A stretch of DNA of 34,582 nucleotides from a virus (lineage: Duplodnaviria > Caudoviricetes): positions 1-34,582 of the IMG/VR virus record IMGVR_UViG_3300037044_000209; one strand, given 5' to 3'. The stretch's first letter is position 1; each line of letters starts with the position of its first letter. Shown here piece after piece: positions 10,724-27,535 of this stretch. A program made the position numbers and the translations under genes. The notes under the pieces are model-generated. The model saw only the letters and a list, made by a program, of their open reading frames with translations. It was not told the origin of the DNA and made no database searches.

Positions 10724-10763
10724 AAGCGTTTAAAAAAACACAACGCCTTTAATAATAATAGCA
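10724..10763 (-). promoter_or_regulatory. Late-module leader motif, copy 4
   Basis: TGCTATTAT-7-GGCGTTGTG-TTTTTTTA-AACGCTT-ATG. Confidence 0.75.
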
Positions 10764-10765
10764 AA

Positions 10766-10957
10766 TTAAGCAATAGTTTTGGACTTGTTAGACCAAGATG
10801 AGGTAGTTTTGGACTTGTTAGACCAGTAATCATCTTGTGATTGATAGATCAAAACCAAATCTTCATCCGCTCCCAGTAAAATCTGATTACCGTCTGGAGT
10901 GAGTATTCTCCCTCTTTCGATGGTAGATGATACTTTGGTTTTATTTGACCAAGCCAT
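10766..10957 (-). CDS. Small virion-associated protein with WSNKxK repeats
   Basis: Three WSNK(T/S)K motifs; exact 22-bp DNA repeat at 10774-10795 and 10804-10825. Confidence 0.6.
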   Translation of the reverse strand: MAWSNKTKVSSTIERGRILTPDGNQILLGADEDLVLIYQSQDDYWSNKSKTTSSWSNKSKTIA

Positions 10958-11247
10958 TAGCCGTAATAACTGATATTGAGAGTTGCATCACTTGCGTCTT
11001 GCCTAATAGCCTTAAAAGCATTCAAAGCTTTAGGGTCATAGATTTCTATGAATGTATCGGCTTTTTGCAATGTTCCGACCGAAGAGGTGGGATTTGTACC
11101 ATCATCACGCCATCTAATCGGTTGGGCTTCCACTCCAATAACTGCTCTAATTGCTTTTGCGGGAACAGAAAGACCGACTGCGGTGGTTGAGACAGTTAGT
11201 TGCTGATAACCTAAAGGTTTAATTCCTGCTGGAAATGTTGCTATCAT
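10957..11247 (-). CDS. Small beta-rich virion protein (decoration-like)
   Basis: Downstream of coat; IRWRDDGT.PT...G pattern. Confidence 0.55.
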   Translation of the reverse strand: MIATFPAGIKPLGYQQLTVSTTAVGLSVPAKAIRAVIGVEAQPIRWRDDGTNPTSSVGTLQKADTFIEIYDPKALNAFKAIRQDASDATLNISYYG

Positions 11248-11270
11248 AATTATTTATTTTAAAATTTAAT

Positions 11271-11292
11271 CCCTCCCCCTTTCGAGGGAGGG
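11271..11292. terminator. GC-rich intergenic hairpin
   Basis: CCCTCCC...GGGAGGG; weak U tract. Confidence 0.45.
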
Positions 11293-11303
11293 TAAAGGAC
11301 ATA

Positions 11304-11768
11304 TTAGCACGCTCTCAAAACCAAGTAATTGATTATTGCGTCAGTGCTTGGGTCACCTGATAGGGTAAAATTTACTGCATTAGAAGCAGCAGCAGTCTGA
11401 ATCAAAGTTACATTGTTTGTTCCATTATCTTCGATAGAAGCAATGGCAATATCTGTAGCTAAGGCACCAGTTACGGTTGCAGATTCAGCAGTATCACCAC
11501 CAGCAGTCGTGTGTTGACCGGAGGCTACTACACGATGAGAAGGTTTGATAAAGGAAGCAGAAGATGTAGTACCTATATTTTCATAGACTCCCTTGAGACC
11601 TGTAGCCACATCGGTGTCAATAAATAAAGCTCCTTTAGAATACCCTGAACCTGTAGGAACAGTTGTACCAGTAGCTAAAAGAATTTTTCCATCATTATCT
11701 CTAATGAGGGTTCGAATACCACTTTTAACTAAACCACCTAATTTTATTTCTCTATTAAATACTTTCAT
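11304..11768 (-). CDS. Head decoration/fibre-like protein
   Basis: Immediately after coat; Ala/Thr-rich beta character. Confidence 0.55.
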   Translation of the reverse strand: MKVFNREIKLGGLVKSGIRTLIRDNDGKILLATGTTVPTGSGYSKGALFIDTDVATGLKGVYENIGTTSSASFIKPSHRVVASGQHTTAGGDTAESATVTGALATDIAIASIEDNGTNNVTLIQTAAASNAVNFTLSGDPSTDAIINYLVLRAC

Positions 11769-11772
11769 AATT

Positions 11773-11864
11773 AAAAAAACCTCTAAATAATAATTAGAGG
11801 TAAGTTTTTCTTGTGTCCCCCTCAGCGTTAGCCAAGGGGGAGGAACTTAAAGTTCACTTACCTC
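11773..11864 (-). terminator. Terminator with competing multibranch structure after the coat gene
   Basis: ACCTCTAA-7-TTAGAGGT plus T-run; its 5' arm can instead pair in GAGGTAAGT/ACTTACCTC, enclosing two hairpins. Confidence 0.6.
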
Positions 11865-11873
11865 AAAGGACAA

Positions 11874-13031
11874 TTAGAAATTGCTTGCATCAAGAACCAT
11901 CTTGACTGAGGCAATTTGACCATCGGAGAACATTTCAGTTCCCATGCCAATGATTCCTTTCGGAAGTTTGGCAAATCCAGCTTCTTTGCTTTCTACTTCA
12001 AGGTCAACGAATTGCATAACTGCATCAATAGCACCTCGAATCATGAAGATTGAGGATTGCTGTTGAGCTGACCAAACATTGGTAGCAGCAGTGAAAGTCT
12101 CACTAACGGAGATATCACCATTACCAGTGAAAGCCATAGCTTCAGCAGTCGTACATTTTACGTTTCTCTTTCTGCGGAGAATGAAAGCGTTCATGGGACT
12201 GATATCAACATAAGTTGTACCAGCACCACTATTACCTTCAACAGCAGCTTTCAGGTTAGCCCTGGAAGTCGCCACATCAGAACCAATGTCGACATCGCCG
12301 GCATCAGTTGGAGAAGCAACGAATTTAAAAGTAACACCCGCAATGGTAACCGTATCATTAGCGGTTGGGTTGGTATCCATGGTCAAAGTAGCAGACCAAG
12401 GAAGGTTGTTGTTTTCAACAACTGTCCACCCATGCCAAGGGCCAATAACACCATTGGCTAAAACACTATCACCAAGTCCAGATTCTCTTTCAGATTTTGC
12501 TCTTCGGAGAATTTCTACAGCATGAGGGCCTAAGACTACCGCTCTCATCGAAGAATCACGAGGAACATCGAAAGAACCGAGTTTTGAACCAGCTTCTTGA
12601 AAGATATCGAGAATATTAGTGGTTGCAAGCTCGAATGCAGTTCCACTATTGATTGAGTGGAAAGCATTGGGAATCTCACTAAGATACTTTTGCTCGAACG
12701 CATTCATCAAACCACGACGAATCGAGGTAAGAGAGTGTTGCAAAAGGTCATAGGGAGACTGATTGCTCTCAGTAATATCGATATCCTCAGCCGCATATTG
12801 GAAGGTATCAACTTCTAACGTACCTTTACTTGCTGATTTGGCGGTGAAACTAATATCAGTGTGGGGAGTATAAGTCCCGATTTGAGCATGAGATAGAATT
12901 GGCTTGTGAGCCTTTCTACCATCAGTGCTGATTAAATTTTCTAGAGATTGATTTGCTAAGTAAACAGCTGAATTGGCTGTATATAGATCTACTTGCAAAT
13001 CACCCCAGAATTCTGCTTTTACATCAGTCAT
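11874..13031 (-). CDS. Major capsid protein (P22 coat-like, with insertion domain)
   Basis: 385 aa after scaffold; HK97-fold-like pattern (NGVIG.WHGW.V.ENNNLP) and a beta insertion. Confidence 0.8.
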   Translation of the reverse strand: MTDVKAEFWGDLQVDLYTANSAVYLANQSLENLISTDGRKAHKPILSHAQIGTYTPHTDISFTAKSASKGTLEVDTFQYAAEDIDITESNQSPYDLLQHSLTSIRRGLMNAFEQKYLSEIPNAFHSINSGTAFELATTNILDIFQEAGSKLGSFDVPRDSSMRAVVLGPHAVEILRRAKSERESGLGDSVLANGVIGPWHGWTVVENNNLPWSATLTMDTNPTANDTVTIAGVTFKFVASPTDAGDVDIGSDVATSRANLKAAVEGNSGAGTTYVDISPMNAFILRRKRNVKCTTAEAMAFTGNGDISVSETFTAATNVWSAQQQSSIFMIRGAIDAVMQFVDLEVESKEAGFAKLPKGIIGMGTEMFSDGQIASVKMVLDASNF

Positions 13032-13085
13032 AATTTTAGGTTGAAAATAAATAAAATAGAACGATGGGAGAAATCAACCTGAAAG

Positions 13086-13733
13086 TTATTGTGTTTGCCT
13101 ATATTTTTCCCTCGCCGCCCTTGCTTCATTCCAGGCTTTTCTGCCTTCTTCAGTATCAAGTGCAAAATCTGCTGGATTCAATGGTTTAGAAGGATCGATA
13201 TTGGAAACATACCCTGCTTTGCCTGAGCGTTTTGGAGTGGCATTTTTTATCCTCTCCTCACGTTCAGCTTCCTCTTTCCTTGATTGGATATAAGGAAGAT
13301 TGGCTGCTTCTCTCACGGAAATCCCTTTTAATTTGGCTAAGTCTTTAATTTCGGCTTTCAGTTCATCTGATAGTCCAAGACTTTCAAGGTCTCTTTCTTC
13401 CAGAATCTCATTAAGCGTACTTTTTACTAAATCGCCAACATCAGGCGTTTCCTTGTTGGATTTATTATCCTCTCCGTTGTCGGAGTTTTTTGAAGTCACT
13501 TTGGCTTTCTCCCTCCAGTTAATCTTTTGCTTTATTGCTCCAGTTAACTTTTCATGGTGGGATTTTTCCCGGCTAACTAACTTTTCGAGTAGATCAACAT
13601 CATCATCTGGGTTTAAACCAAATTCTTCTGCTAATTTATCTCTAAGTTCGTCTTCCTTGACTTCCTTAGTTGCCTCTTCATCAGCCTTAAGCTCATCGGG
13701 AGAGACCACGATGTTGTTTTTATCTTCGTCCAT
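13086..13733 (-). CDS. Capsid scaffolding protein
   Basis: Acidic coiled-coil protein directly upstream of coat. Confidence 0.75.
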   Translation of the reverse strand: MDEDKNNIVVSPDELKADEEATKEVKEDELRDKLAEEFGLNPDDDVDLLEKLVSREKSHHEKLTGAIKQKINWREKAKVTSKNSDNGEDNKSNKETPDVGDLVKSTLNEILEERDLESLGLSDELKAEIKDLAKLKGISVREAANLPYIQSRKEEAEREERIKNATPKRSGKAGYVSNIDPSKPLNPADFALDTEEGRKAWNEARAAREKYRQTQ

Positions 13734-13752
13734 AGGACTATATATTTATAAA

Positions 13753-13844
13753 TAACCGCCATTTGGCAGTTAAGATGGGGGGCCGGTAAGCGTTGTGGAA
13801 AACCAACCCCTCAACTAAAATGTCAAAGGACGCAACGCTTGCCG
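13753..13844 (-). ncRNA. Putative structured RNA with CACAACGCTT loop
   Basis: Stem GGGGTTGGT/ACCGGCCCC (two U.G pairs, favouring the minus strand), loop TTTCCACAACGCTT; upstream complement AAGCGTTGCG; 3' hairpin TAACTGCC-AAAT-GGCGGTTA. Confidence 0.55.
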
Positions 13845-13848
13845 ATTT

Positions 13849-14124
13849 TTAAAGTGTATTTTGTTCAATTATATGTCCACATGAAGGACATTTGATACCG
13901 TGTTTGATTTTTTCAAAATTTACGACAAATTTTCTTTTAGCTGCAAACTCTTTGGCGAGGTCTACAAATTTCTCTCCATGGGTTTCTAAACTATATTTTC
14001 TAACCACATAGCTTCCGTTATAGACCACAGCCTCAATTTCTGGGGACACTTCATTGCCTTGTTTTGGGGCATCTGGAATAATCGATGATTTTACTTCTTT
14101 TTTTACTGCTTTTAATTTATTCAT
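13849..14124 (-). CDS. Hypothetical basic protein with CPSCG knuckle
   Basis: Start moved to ATG 14124, 5 nt after a -10 box. Confidence 0.65.
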   Translation of the reverse strand: MNKLKAVKKEVKSSIIPDAPKQGNEVSPEIEAVVYNGSYVVRKYSLETHGEKFVDLAKEFAAKRKFVVNFEKIKHGIKCPSCGHIIEQNTL

Positions 14125-14129
14125 AATTG

Positions 14130-14159
14130 ATACTAACAATTAATAATAATGTTTGTCAA
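14130..14159 (-). promoter_or_regulatory. Sigma70 promoter, near-leaderless transcript
   Basis: TTGACA-18-TAGTAT with TGn extension. Confidence 0.65.
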
Positions 14160-14293
14160 ATAGTATCTGCACTGGATAAAACCTTTTTTCGTTCTGCCGT
14201 ATCTAACATTCTGTAGGCTCTCTTTGCCAACCAATAGGGGATATCATGCTTTTTAGCTTCACGACGTAACTGTTTATACTTTTTACCACTCAT
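14156..14293 (-). CDS. 45-aa basic protein (not in ORF track)
   Basis: MSGKKYKQLRREAKKHDIPYWLAKRAYR...; ATGA-coupled. Confidence 0.65.
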   Translation of the reverse strand: MSGKKYKQLRREAKKHDIPYWLAKRAYRMLDTAERKKVLSSADTI

Positions 14294-14433
14294 AAGCCGT
14301 AATGTTTTAAAACTTTTACTTTTTTCTTTTGCCTTTCACGCAACAATTTTTCTCTTGGGTCTGGATTTTTAGCTCTTCTTACCGCTTCATCCAACCAAGA
14401 ACGTATTTGAGCTTTCGTTACTTCGTTTGACAT
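14290..14433 (-). CDS. 47-aa basic protein ending YGL (not in ORF track)
   Basis: MSNEVTKAQIRSWLDEAVRRAKNPDPREKLLRERQKKKVKVLKHYGL*. Confidence 0.7.
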   Translation of the reverse strand: MSNEVTKAQIRSWLDEAVRRAKNPDPREKLLRERQKKKVKVLKHYGL

Positions 14434-14438
14434 TGTTA

Positions 14439-14699
14439 TTAAAGTCCGTATTTTCCCCCGGCCTTTTTAATTTCTGATTCAGTTCGTTCTTTTTTCTCCT
14501 GAAACTCAATAAAAGGTCTTAAAATCTCAAGCAACTTTGCTTTGGTCTTTCCTCTAATCTTGGCTTCTTCTCCAGCCTGTTCATTCGTCATATCCCCCAA
14601 TCCGGAAACATTATCCATTTCCTCAATCTTTCCAAGAATATAGTCTGCAAACTCGACAAAATCAGGGTTTGATTTTAGCTTCCTAATTAGTTCTTCCAT
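14439..14699 (-). CDS. Small helical head-assembly-region protein ending YGL
   Basis: 86 aa, helical; resembles small proteins that usually follow portal genes (by eye). Confidence 0.65.
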   Translation of the reverse strand: MEELIRKLKSNPDFVEFADYILGKIEEMDNVSGLGDMTNEQAGEEAKIRGKTKAKLLEILRPFIEFQEKKERTESEIKKAGGKYGL

Positions 14700-14704
14700 A
14701 TTTT

Positions 14705-14713
14705 ATTGTAGCA
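14705..14713 (-). promoter_or_regulatory. Extended -10 promoter, near-leaderless
   Basis: TGCTACAAT 5 nt before ATG 14699. Confidence 0.55.
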
Positions 14714-14722
14714 AATTAATAA

Positions 14723-16219
14723 TTACAAACCATAATTTTTTTGAACAAGTCCACGCCTTTCTTCTCGCTGGTGTTTTAATATCGCCTGTTTAAACTCGTC
14801 TATTGGTGATTCAGCTATCTCCAACTGCATGGCAAATGCATCGATGGTATCGTCATTAGCTCCTTTTGGAAATACAAACATTTCTTTTTCCAAGTCTCCA
14901 CATTCACCGTCAATATGGAATATTCCGCCGGCAGAATAACGGGGAATTAATCCTCTGATTCTGACTTCTTTTTGGGTTTTATTATGTTTTAGGGGATAGA
15001 TAGACGGGAATTTGTCTCTCCTCGCACATTCATCATCCAAAAATGGTTTTAAAGTCTTGAGATAAACTGTCTCCTCAATTCCTATTTTCTCAAAGCCTTC
15101 ATCATGGAGGGTAAAGATGTAATTTATCAGCTCTTTGGGGTCAAAATGAACTCTCATTGCCCTAATATTCCATTTGTTTTGTCTGTCAACATAATTTCTG
15201 ACTATTCCTGTGTAGTCATTTTCAGCTTCCTTTCCCCCAGGGTCTATGGTGGCAAACTTTCGGGTATCCAATGCCTCAATCTCTGACCATGAGCGATTCT
15301 TAATCCAATATTCTTTAAATTCCTGATTTTCCGAAGTAATGGGTGTGCCTTGATAAAGGGCTGCGAATTCATACGGTCCAAGAGTATTCTCAATTTTATA
15401 TAATTTATCCAAAGGAAATTTCTCTGGCCATAAAGCTTCACCTTTCTTTCTACATTCTTCATCTTCAGTAGCGATTGCCGGAAAGTTTATTAAATTCCAC
15501 TTGTCATAATGTTCTACCCCTTCCTCCCTATTCTTTTTTTCCTCTTCTAAGAGCCTCCCTACCAAATCATCTGTATGCCAGCGGGTGTTTAGTATGACAA
15601 TGGCGGTAGCTCCTTCCTGGCGGGTGTAGAAGGTCGACCTATACCAATTCCAACGTGAATCTCTTATCGTCTGCGACTCGGCTTCTTCTCTGTTTTTAAA
15701 TAAGTCATCAATGATTCCGATTTTAAAACCCTTTCCGGTAAATGCTCCACCGGCACCGGAGGCCATATAACTTCCCCCTTCATCTGTTTTCCAATAACCT
15801 TTAGCTTTTGCATCTGAACGTAAGCGGGTAGAAAATATTGCCTGATATTGGGATGATTGCATAATATCCCGTGTTTCTTCACCGAATTTGGTAGCCAATT
15901 CACCAGAATAAGAACCGACCATAATCGGCCAATCAGGGTGATGCCCTAATACCCAAGAGGGAAATTTCTTGGTAGATACCTCACTTTTTCCATGTCTTGG
16001 GGGAACGGTGACGATAATCCGGGCATCTTCTCCCCGTTCAACCTTTTCCATGGCCGTCTGGAGAATAGCTGATAATGTCTCATGGAACCATGTGTCTTGA
16101 TAGATTTTGTCTGTAGCGATTGCAAAATCAATTAGATTTTTCTTCGCTTGATGAATCACCATTGCTTCTGCCTCTTGCGGCAATACGCTCGGCAATCCTG
16201 TCGATTTGTCGGTCATCAA
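14723..16219 (-). CDS. terL: Terminase large subunit
   Basis: PPRHGKS Walker A, IIDD Walker B, TRWHTDD, DPG...DYTG and DDTIDA nuclease motifs; true start may be 16162. Confidence 0.95.
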   Translation of the reverse strand: MMTDKSTGLPSVLPQEAEAMVIHQAKKNLIDFAIATDKIYQDTWFHETLSAILQTAMEKVERGEDARIIVTVPPRHGKSEVSTKKFPSWVLGHHPDWPIMVGSYSGELATKFGEETRDIMQSSQYQAIFSTRLRSDAKAKGYWKTDEGGSYMASGAGGAFTGKGFKIGIIDDLFKNREEAESQTIRDSRWNWYRSTFYTRQEGATAIVILNTRWHTDDLVGRLLEEEKKNREEGVEHYDKWNLINFPAIATEDEECRKKGEALWPEKFPLDKLYKIENTLGPYEFAALYQGTPITSENQEFKEYWIKNRSWSEIEALDTRKFATIDPGGKEAENDYTGIVRNYVDRQNKWNIRAMRVHFDPKELINYIFTLHDEGFEKIGIEETVYLKTLKPFLDDECARRDKFPSIYPLKHNKTQKEVRIRGLIPRYSAGGIFHIDGECGDLEKEMFVFPKGANDDTIDAFAMQLEIAESPIDEFKQAILKHQREERRGLVQKNYGL

Positions 16220-16628
16220 ATTTATTGGTTACTTCACCACTAATCTCGGTACTAATTTCTTCTTTCATTCCATGATTAGCAGAAAGTATTAATTTTGTAA
16301 TTGTAGGGTTATAGTATCCTCCCAACCCTTCATCTATTAGACGTTGTAGCTGTTCTTGTTTAATTCGCTCCAAAGCTTCGTCAACTTCTGAATGGATAGC
16401 TCTCCAATCATAAATAGTCCTCTTGGCATGACCCAAGTAAGCTATAAAGCCCTCAATAGTGGGCAATCTTACCTGATAAATTCTAGAAACTCCGCCCCTT
16501 TTATTGGTTACAACTTCAACATGATCCTGACGTTTTTGGAGATATTCCTCTAGCTTCTTCTTAAACTTTTCCCGATTATAAGATGTCGGTCTGCCTGTTT
16601 TCTTGGTGTAGTGATATTTTTTTGGCAT
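16128..16628 (-). CDS. terS: Terminase small subunit (gp3-like)
   Basis: GRPTSY, PTIEGF..YLG....IYDW, YNPTITKLILSANHG; upstream of terL. Confidence 0.85.
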   Translation of the reverse strand: MPKKYHYTKKTGRPTSYNREKFKKKLEEYLQKRQDHVEVVTNKRGGVSRIYQVRLPTIEGFIAYLGHAKRTIYDWRAIHSEVDEALERIKQEQLQRLIDEGLGGYYNPTITKLILSANHGMKEEISTEISGEVTNKFDDRQIDRIAERIAARGRSNGDSSSEEKSN

Positions 16629-16681
16629 AGCATTATGCTAGTATAATAACATTTCACAACGCTTACTAAATAATGATAGCA
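16629..16681 (-). promoter_or_regulatory. Late-module leader motif, copy 3
   Basis: TGCTATCAT-9-AGCGTTGTG-N17-CATAATGCT-ATG; 9-bp stem with two G.U pairs. Confidence 0.75.
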
Positions 16682-16741
16682 TAGACAAATTCCATTATAT
16701 AATTCTCCTTAAATTTTGGGAATAAATACAAGAGGGACATT

Positions 16742-17296
16742 ATGATATGCATTTCGTGTGGCAAAGAACTACCTGACCAAAGCTTATTTTGCTTATACTG
16801 TGGAAAAAAGCAAGAGAGAACCACCGCCGAAAAAGATCCTAGGTTTACCCCCATATCGCTAAATGTATTTAGATTTGATTCAATCGGGCCGAAGGAAGTA
16901 CGGAAGGGAGGTTTCCTTAGTGTTGACAAAATCGGACGAGGTTTTTATTTTAGTCTCATGCTGCTTAACTACGAAAACAAAAAAGTTATTTCAGATGGCA
17001 AGTTAATAATAGTTATGACTAGTGCACCCATAGGTCTTGGGGCTCCAATTCTTGAAGCAAAGGCTGAAGTCGCTCAAAAATATGCTAGTGCAAAAAATAT
17101 ATTGTTTAGTAAATCAATTGAATTGACCAAGGCAGATTTCGACGAAAATTACAACTACCAGTATGTTCAAATGACACCCCTTGTGTTTGTCGATACAATT
17201 CCATATGGGACGGAAGGCGTTTATTTGCACGTTTGGTTTGTCACAGATGAAGGAAAATGCGTATATGACAATTTCCATGCACCTTTTTGGCATTAG
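16742..17296 (+). CDS. N-terminal zinc-ribbon accessory (moron-like) protein
   Basis: CISCGKELPDQSLFCLYCG; opposite strand; SD GAGGG. Confidence 0.75.
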   Translation: MICISCGKELPDQSLFCLYCGKKQERTTAEKDPRFTPISLNVFRFDSIGPKEVRKGGFLSVDKIGRGFYFSLMLLNYENKKVISDGKLIIVMTSAPIGLGAPILEAKAEVAQKYASAKNILFSKSIELTKADFDENYNYQYVQMTPLVFVDTIPYGTEGVYLHVWFVTDEGKCVYDNFHAPFWH

Positions 17297-17391
17297 TAGG
17301 AAAAACTTAGATTATCGTCATTGATCCTGCGATAAGGATAAATAATTTCTATATATTAAATTGGAGAAGGCTTGCTGTAAAATAAAATTAC

Positions 17392-17589
17392 ATGATATTT
17401 GTCATCGGACTATTTTGTTTACTGGCAACATTTGGTAGTTTGGCAAAAATAATCTCCGGTAGGTGGTTTGATGATAATTATGTGTCCAGCTTTATCACCA
17501 AAGGTTTTTCTCTGATTTTCCAAACAATTTCACCAATAATCGCAATTTTCTTTATCTATTGCGTTTTCTCTTTAATTCAGAACCCTTAA
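17392..17589 (+). CDS. Small two-TM accessory protein
   Basis: Two hydrophobic helices; TAAAAT 8 nt upstream. Confidence 0.55.
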   Translation: MIFVIGLFCLLATFGSLAKIISGRWFDDNYVSSFITKGFSLIFQTISPIIAIFFIYCVFSLIQNP

Positions 17590-19133: not shown

Positions 19134-20164
19134 ATTCCTAAAGGATTATTAATATTTCCACCTTGTAAAAGTTTTAATGGGTCGGTAGTATTCCCAGACC
19201 GGGGAATTAATGGGGACATATCAACTCCCACTGTGGGAGAATAACGATTGGCAAGATATTCGGATATTGCCTTTATTCCCTCAATATTTTCCTGTTCTTG
19301 CTTTGTTTCACTTGGTAGTGATTCCATTAAAAATTTCCTTTCAGCGTCTGATACTTGTGCTCCTGAAATTGCTTTGATAAATCTGGCAGTATAGACATTC
19401 ACCAAGGCTGCAAATCGATCTTCTTCTGGTTCAGTCTTTCCTAAAGTTCTTTTTCCGGGGATAGCTTTAACTCCAAACACACTAACTCCTTTTCTTGAAG
19501 CTCCGACTATCGGCCCGGTGGCAATTCCACTTTCAATTGCTTGGATAATCTCTTGGCCTGTTTGCAAAGTCCCCAACGATTCCATTACGCCTTCACGCTC
19601 ACTTTGAGAACCCAAAGATTGAGCCTTTGAAGATACTTGAGATTTAACCGAATTAATGATTTTCTGTTGCTCTGGCAATGGTAAGGTATCCAAATCAGCA
19701 TATTGATTTTCAGATTGATCACCCACTGAAGCTAATAAATCGTAAGTTTGGCCTATCTTGTCGAGTTCTGTGATATCTGTAACCCCATTATTAAAGGCGT
19801 CTCTCAATATCTCAACTTTACTTTTTCCTCCGAAAGGATCTGAAACATTAGTCTTTATAGAATTAATACTCTCTATACTCTCATCAGTTGTAGTTTCTGT
19901 AGATTTAGTGGATAAGATTTGTTGTCTTTGTTTTAAAGCATTTTGGATATCTGCCTCTTTAGCTCCTCCAATTTTTAGAGTATTTAAAAGTTGCTCATCT
20001 TCTGGTTTAACTTGAAATGTTTCTTTTTTGTTCTTATCCGTACTGACTGTACCTGCTTCTACCCAACCATTAGGCTCGTATTTCCATGTTTTTCCAGAAG
20101 AAGGGTCTTTCCAAATTGTTCCGACTCCTCCTGATGGAGTAAATTGTGGTTTATTTATATTCAT
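19130..20164 (-). CDS. Putative DNA ejection protein
   Basis: SGAQVSDAERKFL...LP motif; start moved to ATGA overlap at 20164. Confidence 0.65.
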   Translation of the reverse strand: MNINKPQFTPSGGVGTIWKDPSSGKTWKYEPNGWVEAGTVSTDKNKKETFQVKPEDEQLLNTLKIGGAKEADIQNALKQRQQILSTKSTETTTDESIESINSIKTNVSDPFGGKSKVEILRDAFNNGVTDITELDKIGQTYDLLASVGDQSENQYADLDTLPLPEQQKIINSVKSQVSSKAQSLGSQSEREGVMESLGTLQTGQEIIQAIESGIATGPIVGASRKGVSVFGVKAIPGKRTLGKTEPEEDRFAALVNVYTARFIKAISGAQVSDAERKFLMESLPSETKQEQENIEGIKAISEYLANRYSPTVGVDMSPLIPRSGNTTDPLKLLQGGNINNPLGI

Positions 20165-21543
20165 GCTATTTTTTTCCATCCTGAACTAGTATATTGCCAG
20201 ATTTCACCTGTAGATGGATCAACATAAACAGTCCCAACTCCTCCAGATGGACTGAATTGAGGTGATTGACCTGTTGTTTGAGTTGAATCTTGAGTGTTAT
20301 TCACTGATTGATAACTCATAGTGGATGTATCACCAGCCAATATCTTTTTTAAATAATCATCAGCTGTACTGGTAGTCGATCCACTTCCTGTTGCAGGCAT
20401 TTTATAGTAATAAGTTTTACCCTTGCTATCGGTGAAAGATTTTAATTGTGCTGCGGGGATACCTGATGGATTTGTGACTAATACCCCTCCGGCGGATGTA
20501 AATTGGTTGGCGGTATCTCGAACTTCTTTAGAATATTGATAATTAGCTAGTTTTTGATTGATTCCCTCTACTGTGTCATTCAAACTAACTCCAGATTGAG
20601 CCATAGCCATGGCAGTATCAGGATTAATCATCAATTCTTTGATGTAATCGGATGTTGCCTGTGCTCGGCCAAGGTCATTTTTCAAAAGGTCTGTTTGCTC
20701 TTGGGCAAGTTTACGATCTTCAGCGGTAAGGGTGATAATGTCTCTATTGGCAAGATTTAAAACCGTTTCGTAATATCCCAACCGATCCATTCTATCTTGA
20801 GTAATTGCTCCGATACTTCGGTCAATTGAATAATAGGCGTTAGCCAGGTAGGTGTTTTGTAGACTGACAACGGCAGAAATGACTCCAGCTCTAGCTGATA
20901 CATCATCCATGGTTTTCTGTACCCTTGGATTTCTAATCGCTGCTAATCCGGTAGTTTCCTGTTGTTGTTTAATAAGGTTGTTACCTTCGGTTAAAAGTTG
21001 GTCTAATTCATTCAACAATTCTCTCTGTTGGAAAATAACCTCATCAGTTCCATACCTTTCCCTCTCTGACTTTTCTAGTTCCTCCCTAAAAGGCGTAGTA
21101 AGCTTGTCAACTTCTCCTAAAGCTGCGGTCTCTTTTGCCTTGGCTGCATCGAGTTCACCTTGGGTTTTAGCTCTTTGTTCGTTTAAATTTACCTCAAGTG
21201 CGTTTCGAGCTTTTTGAACTTCCTCATTTAAACCGAATACATAATTCTGATTAGCTCCTGTCGTATAAGCTGGAGTTACTCCTGGGGTGATACTTTGAGC
21301 AGATACATTGGCAAGATATTGGTCAAATTGTTGGAGAGAAACACCTTGGGCGGCAGCTGAGGCGGATCTGACTTCCTGATTTACTGCTGAACCAGCTCCT
21401 TGTTGATTAGATTCAGGGTGAATTACATTAGGATCTGATAAGGTCCCATTCCAATATTGTCTGCCTTGATACCATCCACCAGTTTGAAATCCCCCTGATG
21501 GTGCTGTAATTCCTAGTTGAGTTGGATTATAAGTATTTGCCAT
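20161..21543 (-). CDS. Putative DNA ejection protein
   Basis: Gln/Ala-rich coiled coil; start moved to ATG 21543 after the leader hairpin. Confidence 0.6.
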   Translation of the reverse strand: MANTYNPTQLGITAPSGGFQTGGWYQGRQYWNGTLSDPNVIHPESNQQGAGSAVNQEVRSASAAAQGVSLQQFDQYLANVSAQSITPGVTPAYTTGANQNYVFGLNEEVQKARNALEVNLNEQRAKTQGELDAAKAKETAALGEVDKLTTPFREELEKSERERYGTDEVIFQQRELLNELDQLLTEGNNLIKQQQETTGLAAIRNPRVQKTMDDVSARAGVISAVVSLQNTYLANAYYSIDRSIGAITQDRMDRLGYYETVLNLANRDIITLTAEDRKLAQEQTDLLKNDLGRAQATSDYIKELMINPDTAMAMAQSGVSLNDTVEGINQKLANYQYSKEVRDTANQFTSAGGVLVTNPSGIPAAQLKSFTDSKGKTYYYKMPATGSGSTTSTADDYLKKILAGDTSTMSYQSVNNTQDSTQTTGQSPQFSPSGGVGTVYVDPSTGEIWQYTSSGWKKIA

Positions 21544-21584
21544 GCGTTGTTTAAAACACAACGCTTTATTAAAAAATTATAACA
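21544..21584 (-). promoter_or_regulatory. Late-module leader motif, copy 2
   Basis: TGTTATAAT-10-AGCGTTGTG-TTTTAA-ACAACGC-ATG. Confidence 0.8.
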
Positions 21585-21588
21585 AAAA

Positions 21589-22485
21589 TTAATCAGCTAT
21601 TTTGTCTTTAAAAATAATAACCCTAAAACTAATAGTAAGAGTACCGGGTAAATTAACTACTAAAATTGAATTAGAACCTGATGTTGTATCTCCTAACCAG
21701 CTATTTGTCGGACTACCATCATTGGTTATTAAAAATCCCATTGCATTGCCTGATGTCCAATTATTTCTGGCAATAATTTCTTCTAAAGAAGATTTTATGT
21801 TTATTTGAAAACTAAAAGGAGTAGAAGCAGGATTCTGATTTTGTGATGTATAAGCAGTTGTACGACTTCTTCCCATTGGATTACTACCAAAATCTCCGGT
21901 ATTATCTTCATCAATTCCATAAGTTTTCATCTTAGTATCCGAAGTACTACTTCCTTTCTGAGCTACATAAGCATCTATATAAGCCGCAGATACCGATTGA
22001 TTCTTGGTTAAAGTAATACCGGCAAACCTCATAGCACCAGACATATTTCCCATACCATCCGCATCATTGTTGCCTACAACATATAAATTCCTACCACTTC
22101 CCCCAGACCATTCACCAAAATAATCATTTAGACTATAAATTTGCCTATTATATGGACTGGCATAGGAATAACCAACTGTAATACCGGTGGTGGTGGCATA
22201 TGCCCAAGGGTAATAATCAAATCCAACTCCATAAGGGATATCGGGTAATAACCTTTCTACTGATTCGTCAGACCGTTTGTAATAAATCAAAAAAGCGGGT
22301 ACATACCCCAAACCATGAGAAACAGTAGACGATTTCTCGGTATCACCAGCTGAAAAGGAAACGGATGTCGTAGAAGAAGAATGGAGTTTAAACATAGAAA
22401 AGGTATTGATATCAACGCTCAAATCCCTCATATCAGTAGAATGAACTGATTTTCCCGGCTTAGCTATCTTTATTCCGTGTGTCAT
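21589..22485 (-). CDS. Tail protein, paralogue 3 with inserted beta-sandwich domain
   Basis: GIKIAKPGKSVHST...HGLGYVP core plus about 170-aa insertion. Confidence 0.65.
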   Translation of the reverse strand: MTHGIKIAKPGKSVHSTDMRDLSVDINTFSMFKLHSSSTTSVSFSAGDTEKSSTVSHGLGYVPAFLIYYKRSDESVERLLPDIPYGVGFDYYPWAYATTTGITVGYSYASPYNRQIYSLNDYFGEWSGGSGRNLYVVGNNDADGMGNMSGAMRFAGITLTKNQSVSAAYIDAYVAQKGSSTSDTKMKTYGIDEDNTGDFGSNPMGRSRTTAYTSQNQNPASTPFSFQINIKSSLEEIIARNNWTSGNAMGFLITNDGSPTNSWLGDTTSGSNSILVVNLPGTLTISFRVIIFKDKIAD

Positions 22486-22886
22486 AAGCCGTCATCTCCA
22501 AAAATAAAGTAACTAACCTTAACAGATTTGGTTGAAGCAGTAGTATTATTTACTCTAATTTTCAAATAGGTAGTATCAACATAAGTTGTTGCCGAATCAG
22601 GATTAACTAAGACATAAGAAGAAGGAAAACCATCCGCAATACTGGGAATACTCACTCCACAATAGAAATGACCTGAAGCCAATTCAGCAAAAACCCAACA
22701 CATTGGCACAAAATCAAGCCCATGTGTTACTGATACATCAGTATATGAGCCGGCATTGACATTGATTGAGGCAGTATTTTCACTATAAATCTTTATGGTC
22801 TCATAATCAGAATTAAAGATGTAGTCATTCGGATTAGTACTGGTTACACTCTTTCCTGATTTGGCTACCTTTACTCCATAACTCAT
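22482..22886 (-). CDS. Tail protein, paralogue 2
   Basis: GVKVAKSGKSVTST...HGLDFVP. Confidence 0.65.
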   Translation of the reverse strand: MSYGVKVAKSGKSVTSTNPNDYIFNSDYETIKIYSENTASINVNAGSYTDVSVTHGLDFVPMCWVFAELASGHFYCGVSIPSIADGFPSSYVLVNPDSATTYVDTTYLKIRVNNTTASTKSVKVSYFIFGDDGL

Positions 22887-23185
22887 ATTGCTTGATGATA
22901 AAGAATGTAATATCTAATATCAGATTCGGCTCTAACATAAGTAGAATCAACACTACTACCTGTTGTTTCAATCTGTCCGACAATTCCTGCTTTGGTTGAT
23001 GAAAACTTGACCATGGATAGAACTATCGGGACGTACCCTAAACCATGAGCATAAGTCTGTCCATCATTAAGCGTGCCAGAATGTTTGACCTTTAAAGTCT
23101 CTAAATCCTCTCGGATAACAAAATCATTCGGGTCTGTTGAGTAAACACTCTTTCCGTGTTTTGCAATTCTAAAAACATTTGTCAT
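22883..23185 (-). CDS. Tail protein, paralogue 1
   Basis: FRIAKHGKSVYST...HGLGYVP. Confidence 0.65.
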   Translation of the reverse strand: MTNVFRIAKHGKSVYSTDPNDFVIREDLETLKVKHSGTLNDGQTYAHGLGYVPIVLSMVKFSSTKAGIVGQIETTGSSVDSTYVRAESDIRYYILYHQAI

Positions 23186-23550
23186 TAAGTTGGGTATAAA
23201 CCAATAAGGACAATATCGTTGGTGCCGTCATTGATTACTATACTGCCTCCTAAAACCTGTTCTTCTCCATTCTTTGTAAGATAAGCATTAGCAGTAAGGC
23301 TGGTAACAGTTGTATTCCCTTCCATATCAACTTTAAAAGGAGCTTCTCCAAAATCTGCTGAACCTAACCAAATCCCCTCACTGCTTTGTCCAAAAACTTT
23401 ATTGCCATATCCTCTCACTAATTTATCAGAAAACGCCTGTAACCCTCCAATATTTTGTCCCAGTGGCATATCTCCGGCGATATACTCCGTCATCAGTTCC
23501 TGACTGGCGGATTTTAGTGACATTCTTGGTGATAGATCAATTGTTTTCAT
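23185..23550 (-). CDS. Tail needle/hub-like protein
   Basis: GIWLGSADF.EAPFKVDMEG; C-terminal I.INDGTN..VLIG; follows nozzle. Confidence 0.5.
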   Translation of the reverse strand: MKTIDLSPRMSLKSASQELMTEYIAGDMPLGQNIGGLQAFSDKLVRGYGNKVFGQSSEGIWLGSADFGEAPFKVDMEGNTTVTSLTANAYLTKNGEEQVLGGSIVINDGTNDIVLIGLYPT

Positions 23551-24980
23551 TACCTTTCAACAAAGTTTCCTAAACAAGTAATCTTTCTAATTGGACAATT
23601 AGCACTCGCACTACCATTCTGATAACTAATAGCCACTCGTAAATCTTCAACAGCCGGCAGATTAATGGTTTTAAAAACATGTCTGGTTTTACTAGTCCCT
23701 GTTATCTCAAAAGCACTGGATGTTTCTGCTCCTTGGTTGCCTTCAAGGGTTAAATCTGCCCTTGCTCCTGCTCCCAATGCCTTGGTACTTACAATAACCG
23801 TATGTACCCTACCCAAACTCCTTTCTTTAGTCAAATCAACCAAAACACTTTTCCAACTGCTGTCAGTTGAATAACCATTAAACTTGGCAAGACGGTGGTT
23901 ACTTGACCCATCCGTAGAGGCGACAATGGGTATCCCAAAGGGAGCAGCTATCCCCCCCACGGTGGCATAACCACCATCCGCCAAGTCTGAAATTTGGATC
24001 GGCAATTGCTCAACTTGAGCACCGAAGGAAAACACATCAGCCCCAGATACGAAGATGATCGTGTTTTTATAAAGTGTTTTTTGCCGATGGTTTGGTAGAG
24101 AGCCCGAAAAATATCGAAGCGGTTTTAGTTGTCTTCCTGAAATCCAGCCTATCGCATAGCCATCAGCTGATAAATCCTCGTAAGCCACATAAACAATTCC
24201 GTTTAAAACATAAAGAAAACCTATTTTCTGACTGCCAATTCCAACTTCATCTGAGAGTATATTGGACATTGCTGAACCATCATAAAGATAAATTTGACTT
24301 CTTCTCCCTTCTCCGTAATTTACTGCTATCCACCAAAGATTTGAATGGAAAACAACATCGGCAACTTCTGCACCTTCCCCAAAATCTAGCTTTTGTATAT
24401 CTAGGGTTGCTGACCCTTCGACATAAACTCCAACATATCTTCCATTACCAAAAACCATAATATCTTCTTTAGCAGCGACTGGATGTGGTGCATTTTCTAA
24501 TGCTGCATCAGTTGTAGAACCCCAGTCAGGATCAATTACTTCTGTAGATAAAGGCATTTGGAAAATATCTCCACCAGAAGATTTGTTGAAAAAGCCATAC
24601 AAGTTAGCCTTGAGCCTAATTAAACTCTCACCACTCGTCATATTAGTTACTGCTTGAGGCCAAGAAGGTGTACCACCACTCGTGACTGTGGTTGAAGACA
24701 ACTTGAATAATTTAGTTGTACCGATAGCGTAGGTGGTGTCTGAGGCTGTGGGTTTATCTAGGATAAAACGTATGAGCTGATCGACTACTCCTGCTTGGGT
24801 ACCGTTGGTTAGGTCGGCTAATGCTGGAGATTGCTGTAAAAACCCAGGGTTAGAAATAACGTCTGCTTTCATCTCTGAAGCCTGGCCTTTTGAGCCTTTA
24901 AAAGTTTTGGTGTCGATATGAGCTAATGGAGAGAATCCATCTCCAAAATCTTCAAATGTAATTGCAAATTGAGTATCCAT
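23550..24980 (-). CDS. Tail nozzle/stabilisation protein (P22 gp10-like beta-propeller)
   Basis: 476 aa beta-rich; F.DF..G N-terminus; podovirus context. Confidence 0.65.
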   Translation of the reverse strand: MDTQFAITFEDFGDGFSPLAHIDTKTFKGSKGQASEMKADVISNPGFLQQSPALADLTNGTQAGVVDQLIRFILDKPTASDTTYAIGTTKLFKLSSTTVTSGGTPSWPQAVTNMTSGESLIRLKANLYGFFNKSSGGDIFQMPLSTEVIDPDWGSTTDAALENAPHPVAAKEDIMVFGNGRYVGVYVEGSATLDIQKLDFGEGAEVADVVFHSNLWWIAVNYGEGRRSQIYLYDGSAMSNILSDEVGIGSQKIGFLYVLNGIVYVAYEDLSADGYAIGWISGRQLKPLRYFSGSLPNHRQKTLYKNTIIFVSGADVFSFGAQVEQLPIQISDLADGGYATVGGIAAPFGIPIVASTDGSSNHRLAKFNGYSTDSSWKSVLVDLTKERSLGRVHTVIVSTKALGAGARADLTLEGNQGAETSSAFEITGTSKTRHVFKTINLPAVEDLRVAISYQNGSASANCPIRKITCLGNFVER

Positions 24981-26746
24981 TATGCATTGACCGGTGGCTC
25001 TTGCGGTTTACCGGCTCTATTTACTGGTTGCCCTTGTTGTGAGGGAACTTCTAATAGTTGAGGTTGTGGTTGTCTTGGAGGTATAGGAATATTTCTTGAT
25101 CGATATATCTGATCCAATATCCAGTTAATTCTCTCCGGGTCTTGTTCAAAGCCAATAAGTTGAGTCAAGTCTTGTAGTTGTTCTGAGAGGTCGTAATTTT
25201 CTCCAGTGATGGTGACAAACAATCTGGGCATTACTGCTTCCCAAATCTTTTTAGTGTTTTTGATGGCTGGATCGGCTTTCTTAATTTCCTCCAACTTTTC
25301 TTCTTTTATTGCTACTGCCGTTTCTTTGGTGTGTGGGCCAATGGCAACTAGATTTTGAGCATACCAACTATCGACTAATATCTCTCGGAGTTGGTCCATG
25401 ATATCGGTTTCACCTACAAACCTGAATACATCTTTACCTTTCATGTCCTTGATAAGTTCCGGTAATACCCATTCTTTGAAGACTCGCTTATAAGGTAGAG
25501 TAATTTTTTGTCGTAAGAGGACAAATAACTTGCCGGCATTCTGATCCATCAAGAGTCCCATTCTAAACGGTGTATTTGAAGGTGGGGTATCACCTCTAGT
25601 TACTTCATAGGAATTGGATAGCTTATCAGCATCGGTCATTAGTCTGTTCCAGTCGGCAATCAACTGGTCAAGGCTTCTCATTCGGACATCAACCTGTTGC
25701 AAATCATCAGTAATGACAATATCTCCATTGTCCATATCAGCTCTGATATTCTGTAAAACCTTAGCATCTCCACTTCGGAAGATGACCTTAGAAGCCCATT
25801 CAAGCCCTCTGGCTAATTGATTACCGATTTCATTGGCTCTAATCTGGTGGTCGAATAAGAGTTCATACATTCCCACTCTCCAAAACCTACCTTCAAACTT
25901 ACCTCGGTGAGCAAAGATGTAATGATCAGACATTGTTCCGGTTAATTTATCAGCAAATAGGGTGTATTTCTCACCTGTACCGCTTTCTTTCAGGCCGGCA
26001 ACAACTACCTTGGCTAGAAAGTATTTATTTTCATCTCCAGTATCTTTCCCTTTAGCTTGGTTAAATTCCAGTTCATTGACTTCACCAGTAAACTCAAATA
26101 CTTCATACCTTTTTCCAGTAGCTGAAATCGGGGTAGTTTGAGTAGAGGCTTTAAAAGACTTATTTCCCAAATTCTCAATGACTAAATCTATATTCTCCTG
26201 ATCCCATTGTTTCATTCCTTTGAGTTGAGAGGCTGTCATTTCATGACGTTCAAGAATATCGGTATCATCAATCGTTTGAGCCTTCTGATTGGTAACGTAG
26301 GTATTTAAAACGTCAATAATCTCATATCCACCGTCTACTCTTTTAAAACCGATATTTCCATTAGCCACAAACTCTTCAACAGAAGACTTCAGTTTAATAT
26401 CCTCCCCTTTTTTCGACATCCAAGACTTTAGGGTAGCGTTAGAGAGGAAAACGGCAGCAAAATCCTTTATCGGGTTTTGGGAGAACACCATGATATTTTT
26501 GGTATCAAAGCGGAGATTCTTGATTTCATTATCTGCCCGAGGAGAAGTGATATCGAAGTAGTAGTTATAACTCAAATCCGGATTAATCTTTTCCCCGGTC
26601 AAATCCCTATTACGGAATTTATAGATACGGTTTATCAAATTATGCTGGCTAAAATGGACTCCCGGACTTATCTCAATCTTGCCAGAAATGTAACTACCTA
26701 TCTCGCTTTCTAATCTTTTAAAAAGGGTTGATTGTATCTTTTTCAT
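24980..26746 (-). CDS. Portal protein
   Basis: 588 aa; GRFWRVGMYELLFDHQ..ANE..NQ; Q/P-rich C-terminal tail. Confidence 0.75.
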   Translation of the reverse strand: MKKIQSTLFKRLESEIGSYISGKIEISPGVHFSQHNLINRIYKFRNRDLTGEKINPDLSYNYYFDITSPRADNEIKNLRFDTKNIMVFSQNPIKDFAAVFLSNATLKSWMSKKGEDIKLKSSVEEFVANGNIGFKRVDGGYEIIDVLNTYVTNQKAQTIDDTDILERHEMTASQLKGMKQWDQENIDLVIENLGNKSFKASTQTTPISATGKRYEVFEFTGEVNELEFNQAKGKDTGDENKYFLAKVVVAGLKESGTGEKYTLFADKLTGTMSDHYIFAHRGKFEGRFWRVGMYELLFDHQIRANEIGNQLARGLEWASKVIFRSGDAKVLQNIRADMDNGDIVITDDLQQVDVRMRSLDQLIADWNRLMTDADKLSNSYEVTRGDTPPSNTPFRMGLLMDQNAGKLFVLLRQKITLPYKRVFKEWVLPELIKDMKGKDVFRFVGETDIMDQLREILVDSWYAQNLVAIGPHTKETAVAIKEEKLEEIKKADPAIKNTKKIWEAVMPRLFVTITGENYDLSEQLQDLTQLIGFEQDPERINWILDQIYRSRNIPIPPRQPQPQLLEVPSQQGQPVNRAGKPQEPPVNA

Positions 26747-26764
26747 TAAAGGGTATGAAAACTA

Positions 26765-27469
26765 TTAAAGTCCATAAGCATTTACGGATTGTTTTTTTAA
26801 CCTAAATCTGGTTCTATCATCAGGACTTCTTCTGGCGTAATGCTCCTGAATTGTCGCCCTGATTCTTTCTTTTTCAGACATTAAAAAAGAAGCTTTTTCT
26901 TTCATCCCATTTGCCAGAGCATAACGGAGGGAAGCACCGATAGATAAGTATTGATGGAATTGTGGATTAAATCCAGGCTTTTCGTCTGTATCAGCAGTCG
27001 AGAAATGATTAGCTCCTCTTTGGAACTCTAATTCATATTCTATTGCTGACGATGGCACTGGTATTGGAAAGATAGCATTATCGATTTTGTAGTACTTATA
27101 AGGTGTCCCGGTGGAGTTTAAATCACTATCAGATAATTCTCGCCTAGTTACCGAAGTTAGAGTTTTATATACCCCACTAGTATCTTTAATTCTTACCCGA
27201 TGAATCACCATACTTCCATCAGGTATGGTTACATGGTCTTCACTTGTAGTAATGGTAGCAATTGGAAAGTCTGTATTAGTAATATCGTCCCACATGAAAT
27301 TGGGATCGGCTTTAAAAAGTTCGGAGACTACCTCATCCAGAGAGATGTTGACATTTCGTGTTCTATCGGCCAAGGCGTAATCACTGTTGAATGTTGAGCC
27401 GTCAGCAAATAACAAAAAATCGATGTCTGCGACAATCGAATTACTTTTATCTGTAGGATTAAATTGCAT
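26765..27469 (-). CDS. Head-tail adaptor/connector protein
   Basis: GTPYKYY...IFPIPVP, FHQYL..GA..RY pattern; start moved to ATG 27469; ends YGL. Confidence 0.7.
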   Translation of the reverse strand: MQFNPTDKSNSIVADIDFLLFADGSTFNSDYALADRTRNVNISLDEVVSELFKADPNFMWDDITNTDFPIATITTSEDHVTIPDGSMVIHRVRIKDTSGVYKTLTSVTRRELSDSDLNSTGTPYKYYKIDNAIFPIPVPSSAIEYELEFQRGANHFSTADTDEKPGFNPQFHQYLSIGASLRYALANGMKEKASFLMSEKERIRATIQEHYARRSPDDRTRFRLKKQSVNAYGL

Positions 27470-27535
27470 AGCCGTTGAGATACTAATCACAACGCTTTAA
27501 AAATTATAGCATTTCTAATCTTGGTGTGTAAATTA
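27470..27535 (-). promoter_or_regulatory. Late promoter and leader motif, copy 1
   Basis: TTTACA-18-TATAAT (TGn), 6 nt, then AGCGTTGTGA-TTAGTA-TCTCAACGGCT-ATG. Confidence 0.8.

Follow-up and report, generated by a model that had tools for sequence, protein, structure and literature searches.

The stretch of DNA analyzed here, referred to as the window, is the whole of the 34,582-base virus record IMGVR_UViG_3300037044_000209. Nearly all of its genes lie on the minus strand, and they include an integrase, an excisionase, the terminase subunits, a portal-sized gene, a major capsid protein (MCP), an adaptor of the SU10 type, a tail fibre and an endolysin. Families were assigned by scanning 30 window proteins against Pfam and 47 against PHROGs. 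The subject of this analysis is a 10-nucleotide (nt) sequence, the box, that recurs in the leaders of four virion modules. It is found again in the leader of a scaffold-like gene and the MCP, where the box and its complement, the anti-box, belong to a switch. By prediction the late genes form a real, conserved RNA regulon in which a single 10-nt box locks the start codons of four modules together with a capsid attenuator, and the structures are well supported by comparison of sequences from relatives.

The four modules share an order of elements on the minus strand, with an extended −10 sequence of the form TGnTAnnAT, the box, and a complementary 3′ arm adjoining the ATG. In the adaptor/portal module the −10 element TGCTATAAT (27503-27511), which stands 6-7 nt before the ATG in orthologues from relatives lacking the switch (switchless relatives), is followed by the box AAGCGTTGTG (27488-27497) at the predicted +1 and by the 3′ arm TCTCAACGGCT (27470-27480) next to the ATG at 27469. 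The ejection-protein module has TGTTATAAT (21576-21584), the same box AAGCGTTGTG (21557-21566) and the arm ACAACGC (21544-21550) adjoining the ATG at 21543. In the terminase module TGCTATCAT (16673-16681) precedes the box AAGCGTTGTG (16655-16664), an inner hairpin that is kept in orthologues, and the arm CATAATGCT (16629-16637) at the ATG of terS (16628, PHROG 606). The fibre/lysis module has TGCTATTAT (10755-10763), the variant box AGGCGTTGTG (10739-10748) and the arm AAACGCTT (10724-10731) at the ATG of the tail fibre (10723, PHROG 5073). The −10 elements and boxes were located by sequence, and the arms by sequence and folding, with a shuffle test in addition.

The first-pass annotation had reported four copies of the motif RGCGTTGTG, each preceded by TGnTAnnAT at a distance of 6-10 nt, and a direct scan found all of them at their places. 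The gaps are 6, 10, 9 and 7 nt for adaptor, ejection, terS and fibre respectively, and in each leader the 3′ arm ends 0 nt before the ATG. A scan of both strands gives five copies of the motif in the window against 0.11 expected, so that a fifth, in the scaffold/capsid leader, had been overlooked. None of 300 first-order Markov resamples reaches five copies, and none contains even one −10 element plus motif. The four leaders fold into hairpins of −8.7 to −11.7 kcal/mol (z = −1.1 to −2.6). Compared with shuffles of the stretch from box to ATG, their energies give p = 0.033, 0.003, 0.003 and 0.007.

The same pattern is seen in a set of 44 target leaders, which have 8 distinct 5′ cores but 30 distinct best 3′ arms. 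Complementarity is kept as the arms drift, with 33 of the 44 folding better than shuffles at p ≤ 0.05. We prefer this energy-based test to a count of hairpins, for which the control is lenient (40/44 with a lock against 24.8 expected). The 3′ arm ends at the start codon in 40 of the 44. The pairing is otherwise loosely constrained; 38/44 arms are imperfect, the loops run from 3 to about 30 nt and the spacing between arms from 3 to about 40 nt. Two arguments made originally for an RNA structure carry little weight. The leaders do lack a Shine-Dalgarno (SD) sequence, but an SD-like word is present in just 5 of 22 other genes examined, and G·U pairs do occur in the 3′ arms, but 6 of 7 possible transitions would preserve pairing by composition alone. 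The reading of the hairpins as RNA locks is supported instead because the box is kept while the arms drift, because the leaders beat their shuffles, and because the same box forms a covarying helix in the OFF state of the switch described below. The earlier proposal of a structure that blocks initiation, with its fixed arm recognized in trans, is partly supported and was incomplete, since the switch that provides both a polarity and a candidate partner had been missed.

The corresponding genes of switchless relatives are typically laid out for leaderless starts, with TGnTAnnAT 5-7 nt from the ATG (27/44 starts). Among box-bearing leaders the extended −10 is found in 33 of 44, with a modal gap to the box of 6 nt. 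The upstream element is likely to be a real promoter, and the two observations together place the box, by prediction, at the 5′ end of the transcript or no more than about 5 nt from it. Two leaderless extended −10 starts without a box also lie within the late region (14700-14713 and 14125-14138, minus strand); not every late promoter is therefore locked.

The fifth copy of the motif is a plus-strand match at 13789-13797. On the minus strand this is the anti-box of a switch, and the switch's own box, AAGCGTTGCG, is located at 13840-13831. The switch leader (13840-13745) consists of the box, an inner hairpin containing a segment X, the anti-box CACAACGCTT, a segment X*, and a terminator-like hairpin. 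Leader comparison identifies the box (13831-13840) as the 5′ strand of a helix P1, with one mismatch to the anti-box (13788-13797). In the predicted OFF fold the anti-box is paired, and an inner hairpin P2 (13807-13830) forms next to it; in the ON fold the anti-box is in a loop, and X (13802-13825) pairs with X* (13764-13787) as the two strands of an antiterminator helix. X* overlaps the 5′ arm of the terminator-like hairpin TAACTGCC-AAAT-GGCGGTTA with its weak U tract TTTATAAA (13745-13772), which is not called by a consensus scan. The anti-box CACAACGCTT is a perfect complement of three of the dispersed boxes and has one wobble to the fourth. Downstream lie the genes predicted to be gated by the switch (11874-13733): a scaffold-like open reading frame (ORF; 13733-13086), so labelled from position and composition as it has no family match, and the MCP (13031-11874, PHROG 267). 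A TTGACA / TGTTAGTAT promoter (14130-14159, minus strand), found by sequence and promoter scan, serves the leaderless start of ORF 14124, and its transcript likely runs into the switch.

Distinct switch leaders were collected from relatives, 22 at first and 26 later, and 20 were aligned for the analysis of covariation. RNAalifold applied to this alignment picks the X:X* helix. The antiterminator has 20 pairs that are 90% paired, with 16 changed on both sides, against 38-54% for slid controls. For P1, formed by box and anti-box, pairing is 97% and both sides have changed at 5 of the 10 pairs; slid controls give at most 57%. To judge from their positions in the sequence, P1 and the antiterminator cross and should be mutually exclusive at these lengths. 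The leader thus has the layout of an anti-antiterminator, an antiterminator and a terminator built from mutually exclusive helices. P1 is present in 22/22 nascent folds, and the energies of the two full folds differ by no more than 6.5 kcal/mol in 20/22. In most leaders the ON fold becomes the more stable of the two once the chain extends 20-32 nt beyond the anti-box, when the terminator has yet to be completed.

A U tract, by a rough criterion, follows the hairpin in 15/26 box-type switches and in all five of the distant ones considered below. In 7 of the 11 box-type switches that lack it, opening the scaffold start costs at least 2 kcal/mol more in the P1 fold, since there X* pairs with purines surrounding that start, which in several cases are those of the SD. 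In these models the polarity is uniform across switches, with the paired box corresponding to OFF. Five distant lineages keep the whole architecture before the scaffold gene with unrelated P1 sequences (L632:9213-9299, L640:6053-6150, L639:9167-9265, L641:7278-7375 and L164:4937-5022); their capsid identity is 41-49% where measured, and the available fragments contain no dispersed boxes. The prophage of a 1.2-Mb genome (G011) carries a second switch (L207:18377-18460) before a holin-like and endolysin-like pair, labelled from sequence character, so that lysis too would be gated by the same element there. A covariance model of the switch matched 1 of 151 genomes in the phylum of another host genome, G012, and the match was the prophage itself; in the genomes searched the switch is therefore not a host chromosomal element. 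The GenBank relative MW202577 (MCP 56%) has no switch. Pattern scans for −10 plus box gave 120 loci, of which only L025 and L101 are relatives (by tblastn to leader genes), the rest being mostly chance; three spaced patterns gave 357 new loci with four relatives, all already known.

The switch and the dispersed boxes occur together. Counting the starts of adaptor, portal, ejection, terS and fibre genes, a box is found at 38/63 late starts in 18 records with a switch and at 0/44 in 19 switchless records. The switch is patchy on a quick MCP tree, on which well-supported branches force at least five changes. Within the switch the two strands of P1 do not evolve alike; the box alone has changed in 9/26 (by up to 4 nt) and the anti-box alone in 1/26. 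The targets agree better with the anti-box. For 45 targets in 15 genomes there are 53 positions that differ from the genome's own switch box and 24 that differ from the complement of its own anti-box, and core mismatches occur in 1/45 targets against their own anti-box but in 6/45 against the clade consensus. At 12 positions box and anti-box disagree, and all targets follow the anti-box at 10 of these; of the other two, position 10 of G001 shows the opposite and position 1 of G002 is mixed. Private variants common to targets and anti-box are seen in four genomes, at position 3 in G011, 5 in G007, 1 and 6 in G165, and 10 in G012. In G011 both anti-boxes are CACAACGTTT, and three targets are AAACGTTGTG, including terS, whose box has changed while its own cis 3′ arm keeps the ancestral C. 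The G011 lysis switch has a changed anti-box and an unchanged box. The 5′ end of G011 terS is also complementary to the switch over 14 contiguous bases GAGAAAACGTTGTG (L207:9508-9521 with L207:12617-12630), longer than the 10-nt box. Apart from the cis 3′ arms, the sense strand contains no second free perfect anti-box in the window, in G002-G005 or in the integrated G011 prophage. An anti-box match at 2471 in G164 is a 9-mer between early ORFs and was judged to be chance.

We propose that the exposed anti-box of the scaffold leader RNA captures boxes in trans, which would open the start codons and bring about antitermination of the capsid operon. To this reading we assign a probability of about 0.45. 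Under it, host sigma-70 would transcribe the late modules without a phage activator, and a box paired in cis would keep each of the five late leaders OFF. P1 would form first during transcription, ending most scaffold transcripts after about 90 nt; where a lineage has no U tract, the P1 fold would hide the scaffold SD instead. The short RNA would differ little in energy from a fold in which the anti-box lies in a loop, and a box at a free 5′ end could wind into that loop. As phage copies and leader RNA rise in number the loop would capture free 5′ boxes, unmasking the four start codons and pushing new scaffold leaders towards the antiterminated fold. Accumulation of the short RNA during phage DNA replication could then give a delayed late switch reinforced by positive feedback. 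For the terminated RNA of the window, freeing the anti-box is predicted to cost 1.0 kcal/mol, and for 11 of 15 relatives the cost does not exceed 3.2 kcal/mol. Box capture is predicted to lower the cost of opening the start regions from 9.4, 8.0, 7.3 and 9.2 to 2.2, 0.6, 5.0 and 3.1 kcal/mol, a strong effect at three of the four and a modest one at terS. A wider version, which we hold a little more tentatively, is an RNA-only late circuit in which the terminated leader would be a self-amplifying key, antiterminating its own operon and unlocking unlinked virion modules through a 10-nt seed. In such a circuit late expression might be triggered by phage copy number without a protein activator, and the key sequence could be reprogrammable, since the five distant lineages use unrelated P1 sequences.

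A number of results weigh against capture by the leader RNA. Its predicted net binding to folded targets is weak, at −2.7 to −6.9 kcal/mol at 37 °C (a dissociation constant of about 1e-5 to 1e-2 M); the toeholds span 2-3 nt, and a chaperone was not identified. The anti-box of G165 can be freed only at a high cost (12.5 kcal/mol in the terminated RNA and 7.0 in the ON fold), yet three targets carry boxes. Position 10 is mismatched in 7/45 targets, and in G001 three of four targets follow the switch box there rather than the anti-box. Following the anti-box usually amounts to following the clade consensus as well, which weakens the tracking test. Because box and anti-box covary in cis, most matched variants would fit a protein of drifting specificity equally; only G011 terS breaks the cis pairing while keeping the trans match. 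When pairing beyond 10 nt is considered, the genome's own switch is not ranked first in most genomes. No lock hairpin is found in 4/44 targets by the count criterion, 11/26 switches lack a U tract, and the window's own tract is weak and was not called as a terminator. Finally, most of the relative records are fragments and the genomes are related, so that the counts are not independent.

The box might instead be read by a protein. A phage or host RNA-binding protein could capture the single-stranded box, opening the four starts as Com of phage Mu does for mom and preventing P1. The polarity and co-occurrence described above are the same as expected for an RNA key, and the weak RNA-RNA energetics would be avoided. 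By eye, small basic ORFs lie between terL and scaffold in 15/21 switch loci and in 0/13 switchless loci with ORFs listed, but these are three unrelated families, and none is present in six switch loci. A CxxC knuckle is found in ORF 14124, for which a weak Com-like neighbour in the Atlas (0.79) gives only a lead; the ORF is universal with or without the switch, has one CxxC where Com has four cysteines, and gives no clear fold match, and it was set aside as the trans factor. Among ORFs of at least 30 amino acids in 11 switch and 5 switchless records, each family present in at least 7 switch records also occurs in switchless ones, so that no family is found in most of the former and absent from the latter. 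A cognate RNA-binding regulator was likewise not seen among the 30 proteins scanned against Pfam or the 47 against PHROGs, a scan that would miss a host protein. The switch's own box, which would be expected to be the prime site, is the least conserved copy (9/26 private changes), and P1 is wholly different in sequence in the five distant lineages. Overall we consider a box-binding protein plausible, though less probable than the RNA key. A protein could also act in the opposite sense, as a PyrR-like repressor stabilizing the box helix and holding late genes OFF in the lysogen; its loss on induction would let the antiterminator win and ribosomes load. The succession of P1, antiterminator and terminator is that of PyrR attenuators (PMC7430163), and a P1 stabilizer would have work to do, as the ON fold in most leaders gains the advantage ahead of terminator completion. 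Such a protein would nevertheless face no common duplex surface, given the imperfect arms and variable loops of the locks, many of which already reach −9 to −17 kcal/mol unaided. Neither a candidate by co-distribution nor an Rfam match to PyrR was found, and this explanation appears improbable.

If the 10-mer were a DNA site at +1, reversed at the anti-box, for a DNA-binding regulator, the hairpins would be secondary. Genome-specific variants would fit this reading as well, since box and anti-box are one double-stranded sequence, and the position overlaps the predicted start point. ORFs 27839 and 33439 resemble ribbon-helix-helix or helix-turn-helix proteins by eye (with no Pfam match), but the candidate regulators are present in at most 5/11 switch records. 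Left unexplained would be the covarying antiterminator, the inner hairpins, the arms that end at the start (40/44) and the 3 to about 40 nt between arms, and a DNA operator is therefore very improbable in our estimation. We give marginally less credence again to a separate phage or host small RNA that carries the anti-box and acts as the key, with the scaffold leader as a mere target. Wobble-compatible covariation would fit any RNA partner, and such an RNA could lie beyond most of the records, which are incomplete, or beyond the window, which is trimmed at gene ends. On the other hand neither the integrated G011 prophage nor any of four records of 35-41 kb contains an additional anti-box. The host sequences of G011 and G012 contain nine matches, a chance level, eight of them in long ORFs and the ninth in a 73-codon ORF, and no Rfam RNA. 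The better preservation of the switch's anti-box than of its box would also be unexplained. Two further ideas were set aside. The box as a non-canonical SD or ribosomal RNA partner found no full anti-box in one 16S sequence (G013, whose host status is unestablished). Translational coupling from ORF 14124 is not general, as the distance from its stop to the box ranges from 5 to more than 40 nt and many switches have their own promoter.

The element is apparently undescribed. An Rfam scan of the window gave two weak matches elsewhere (E = 0.2 and 0.78) and none at the leaders, no gathering-level match was obtained in 13 loci, four of them with switches, and no description was found in a literature search mostly without subscription papers and not including supplements. 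Several known systems are related in logic, as far as the relevant parts of the cited sources describe them. In the Gifsy-1 prophage of Salmonella, IsrK is a short terminated leader RNA that acts in trans on its own long transcript, where a shift from fold A to fold B frees a ribosome-binding site (PMC4825925), as in the RNA-key reading. IsrK acts on its own locus, whereas here several unlinked virion transcripts carry a copy of the 10-nt box at the 5′ end, and at the home locus the predicted output is antitermination; a sequence relation was checked by Rfam only, with no match. The CI RNA of P4, with its seqA and seqC sites, is likewise a leader-derived phage RNA that pairs with short nascent sites and decides termination, but it promotes termination and maintains lysogeny (PMC4825925), whereas here pairing would activate late genes and also control translation. 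The PyrR and TRAP attenuators of Bacillus have the same anti-antiterminator layout, with an element repeated at several sites, but need a metabolite-binding protein and a conserved binding sequence (PMC7430163); neither was found here, P1 being free to vary across lineages, and the switch alignment contains no PyrR or TRAP binding motif, nor do the leaders match either in Rfam. In the Com/mom system of Mu the start region of a late mRNA is held in a hairpin opened by a trans factor, much as in the locks, but Com is a zinc finger with four cysteines and a single target, in which it recognizes CC(N)2-3GAG within a loop next to the stem (PMC6483171). That motif is absent from the four window leaders, and no four-cysteine Com was found. 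SreA and SreB are terminated leaders that act as small RNAs on an unlinked mRNA, but they repress and derive from S-adenosylmethionine (SAM) riboswitches (PMC4825925), unlike the activation proposed here. In synthetic small transcription-activating RNAs (STARs) a trans RNA prevents terminator formation; these are engineered, bind the terminator arm directly and pair over a far longer length than here (PMC5648800). At the level of sequence, then, the element corresponds to none of IsrK/P4 CI, PyrR or Com/mom. It is also not of the BglG/LicT ribonucleic antiterminator type, as the antiterminator is a self-stable helix of 20 base pairs opposed by P1 and no CAT or PRD domain is matched by Pfam in the 30 proteins; nor is it a T-box riboswitch, having no Rfam match and a leader of about 95 nt without stem I.

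Some other features were observed. The scaffold start codon lies inside a conserved GTCCT-ATG-GAC mini-hairpin (13731-13740, minus strand, as well as L141:13220-13254, L151:12890-12921 and the majority of relatives). Just upstream of that start, irrespective of the switch, most relatives also have a GCC-n-GGC hairpin and a run of A. These hairpins are possibly a separate site for scaffold autoregulation. Two other leader types are found at the scaffold position, a small hairpin overlapping a long terminator (L169, L634 and L635) and a long GTGGCACTG...CAGTGCCA hairpin (L626, L627, L629, L642, L643 and L654). Directly upstream of the scaffold leader in nearly all relatives is ORF 14124 (13849-14124, minus strand), with an invariant R..HG..A core and usually a C-terminal CxxC. 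Its structural model is confident (predicted local distance difference test, pLDDT, of 89), and the best fold-search values were Z = 3.3 and E = 0.11. A further ORF (14156-14293, minus strand) encodes 45 amino acids rich in Lys and Arg and is present in 5/11 switch records and 0/5 switchless ones; at other switch loci the interval is occupied by small basic ORFs unrelated to it. Strong hairpins lie 3′ of the capsid gene and 3′ of ORF 11768 (11270-11292 and 11779-11840, minus strand), two being called terminator-like. A PQF(S/T)PSGGVGT...W repeat is common to two ejection-type proteins, at the C-terminus of the first and the N-terminus of the one that follows (20161-20270 and 20050-20179, minus strand). 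Between 1174 and 6087 an excisionase, a TraD-like ATPase (1974-3491), a 238-amino-acid ORF and a LuxR-like/DUF4352 ORF make up a mobilization-like block, unusual for a phage, that is common to G001-G004 and G006 and was not found in G005, G011 or G012.

The window is contained in 13 groundwater and coal metagenome runs, 7 of which are possible sources. Four DNA runs span the region, and no differences are listed at the leaders. A relative is integrated as a prophage on a 129-kb contig of G011. This genome is titled Gammaproteobacteria, which looks like a mislabel, as its ribosomal protein S3 is closest to Levybacteria and Patescibacteria among named matches; the nine organism-named sequences in the best 120 homologues are Levybacteria (five), Patescibacteria group (three) and Parcubacteria (one). 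Further relatives are in bins of Shapirobacteria, Paceibacterota and Woesearchaeota, on short or phage-only contigs, and the named matches of the window integrase are from Anaerolineales and Shapirobacteria. The phage is temperate, and its host is likely to be among the Patescibacteria, as an ultra-small bacterium of groundwater.

We know of no account of how temperate phages of Patescibacteria-like hosts silence their late genes and then activate them jointly. In such phages each virion module seems to be preceded by an extended −10 promoter of the host type, and an element backed by covariation would couple termination or translation of the capsid operon to the translation of other modules through a single 10-nt box. 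If the leader RNA is the key, engineered toehold and STAR circuits would have a natural equivalent with several targets, and the lytic program a timer that needs no protein. If a protein reads the box instead, it would still be an undescribed phage regulon with natural allelic variants.

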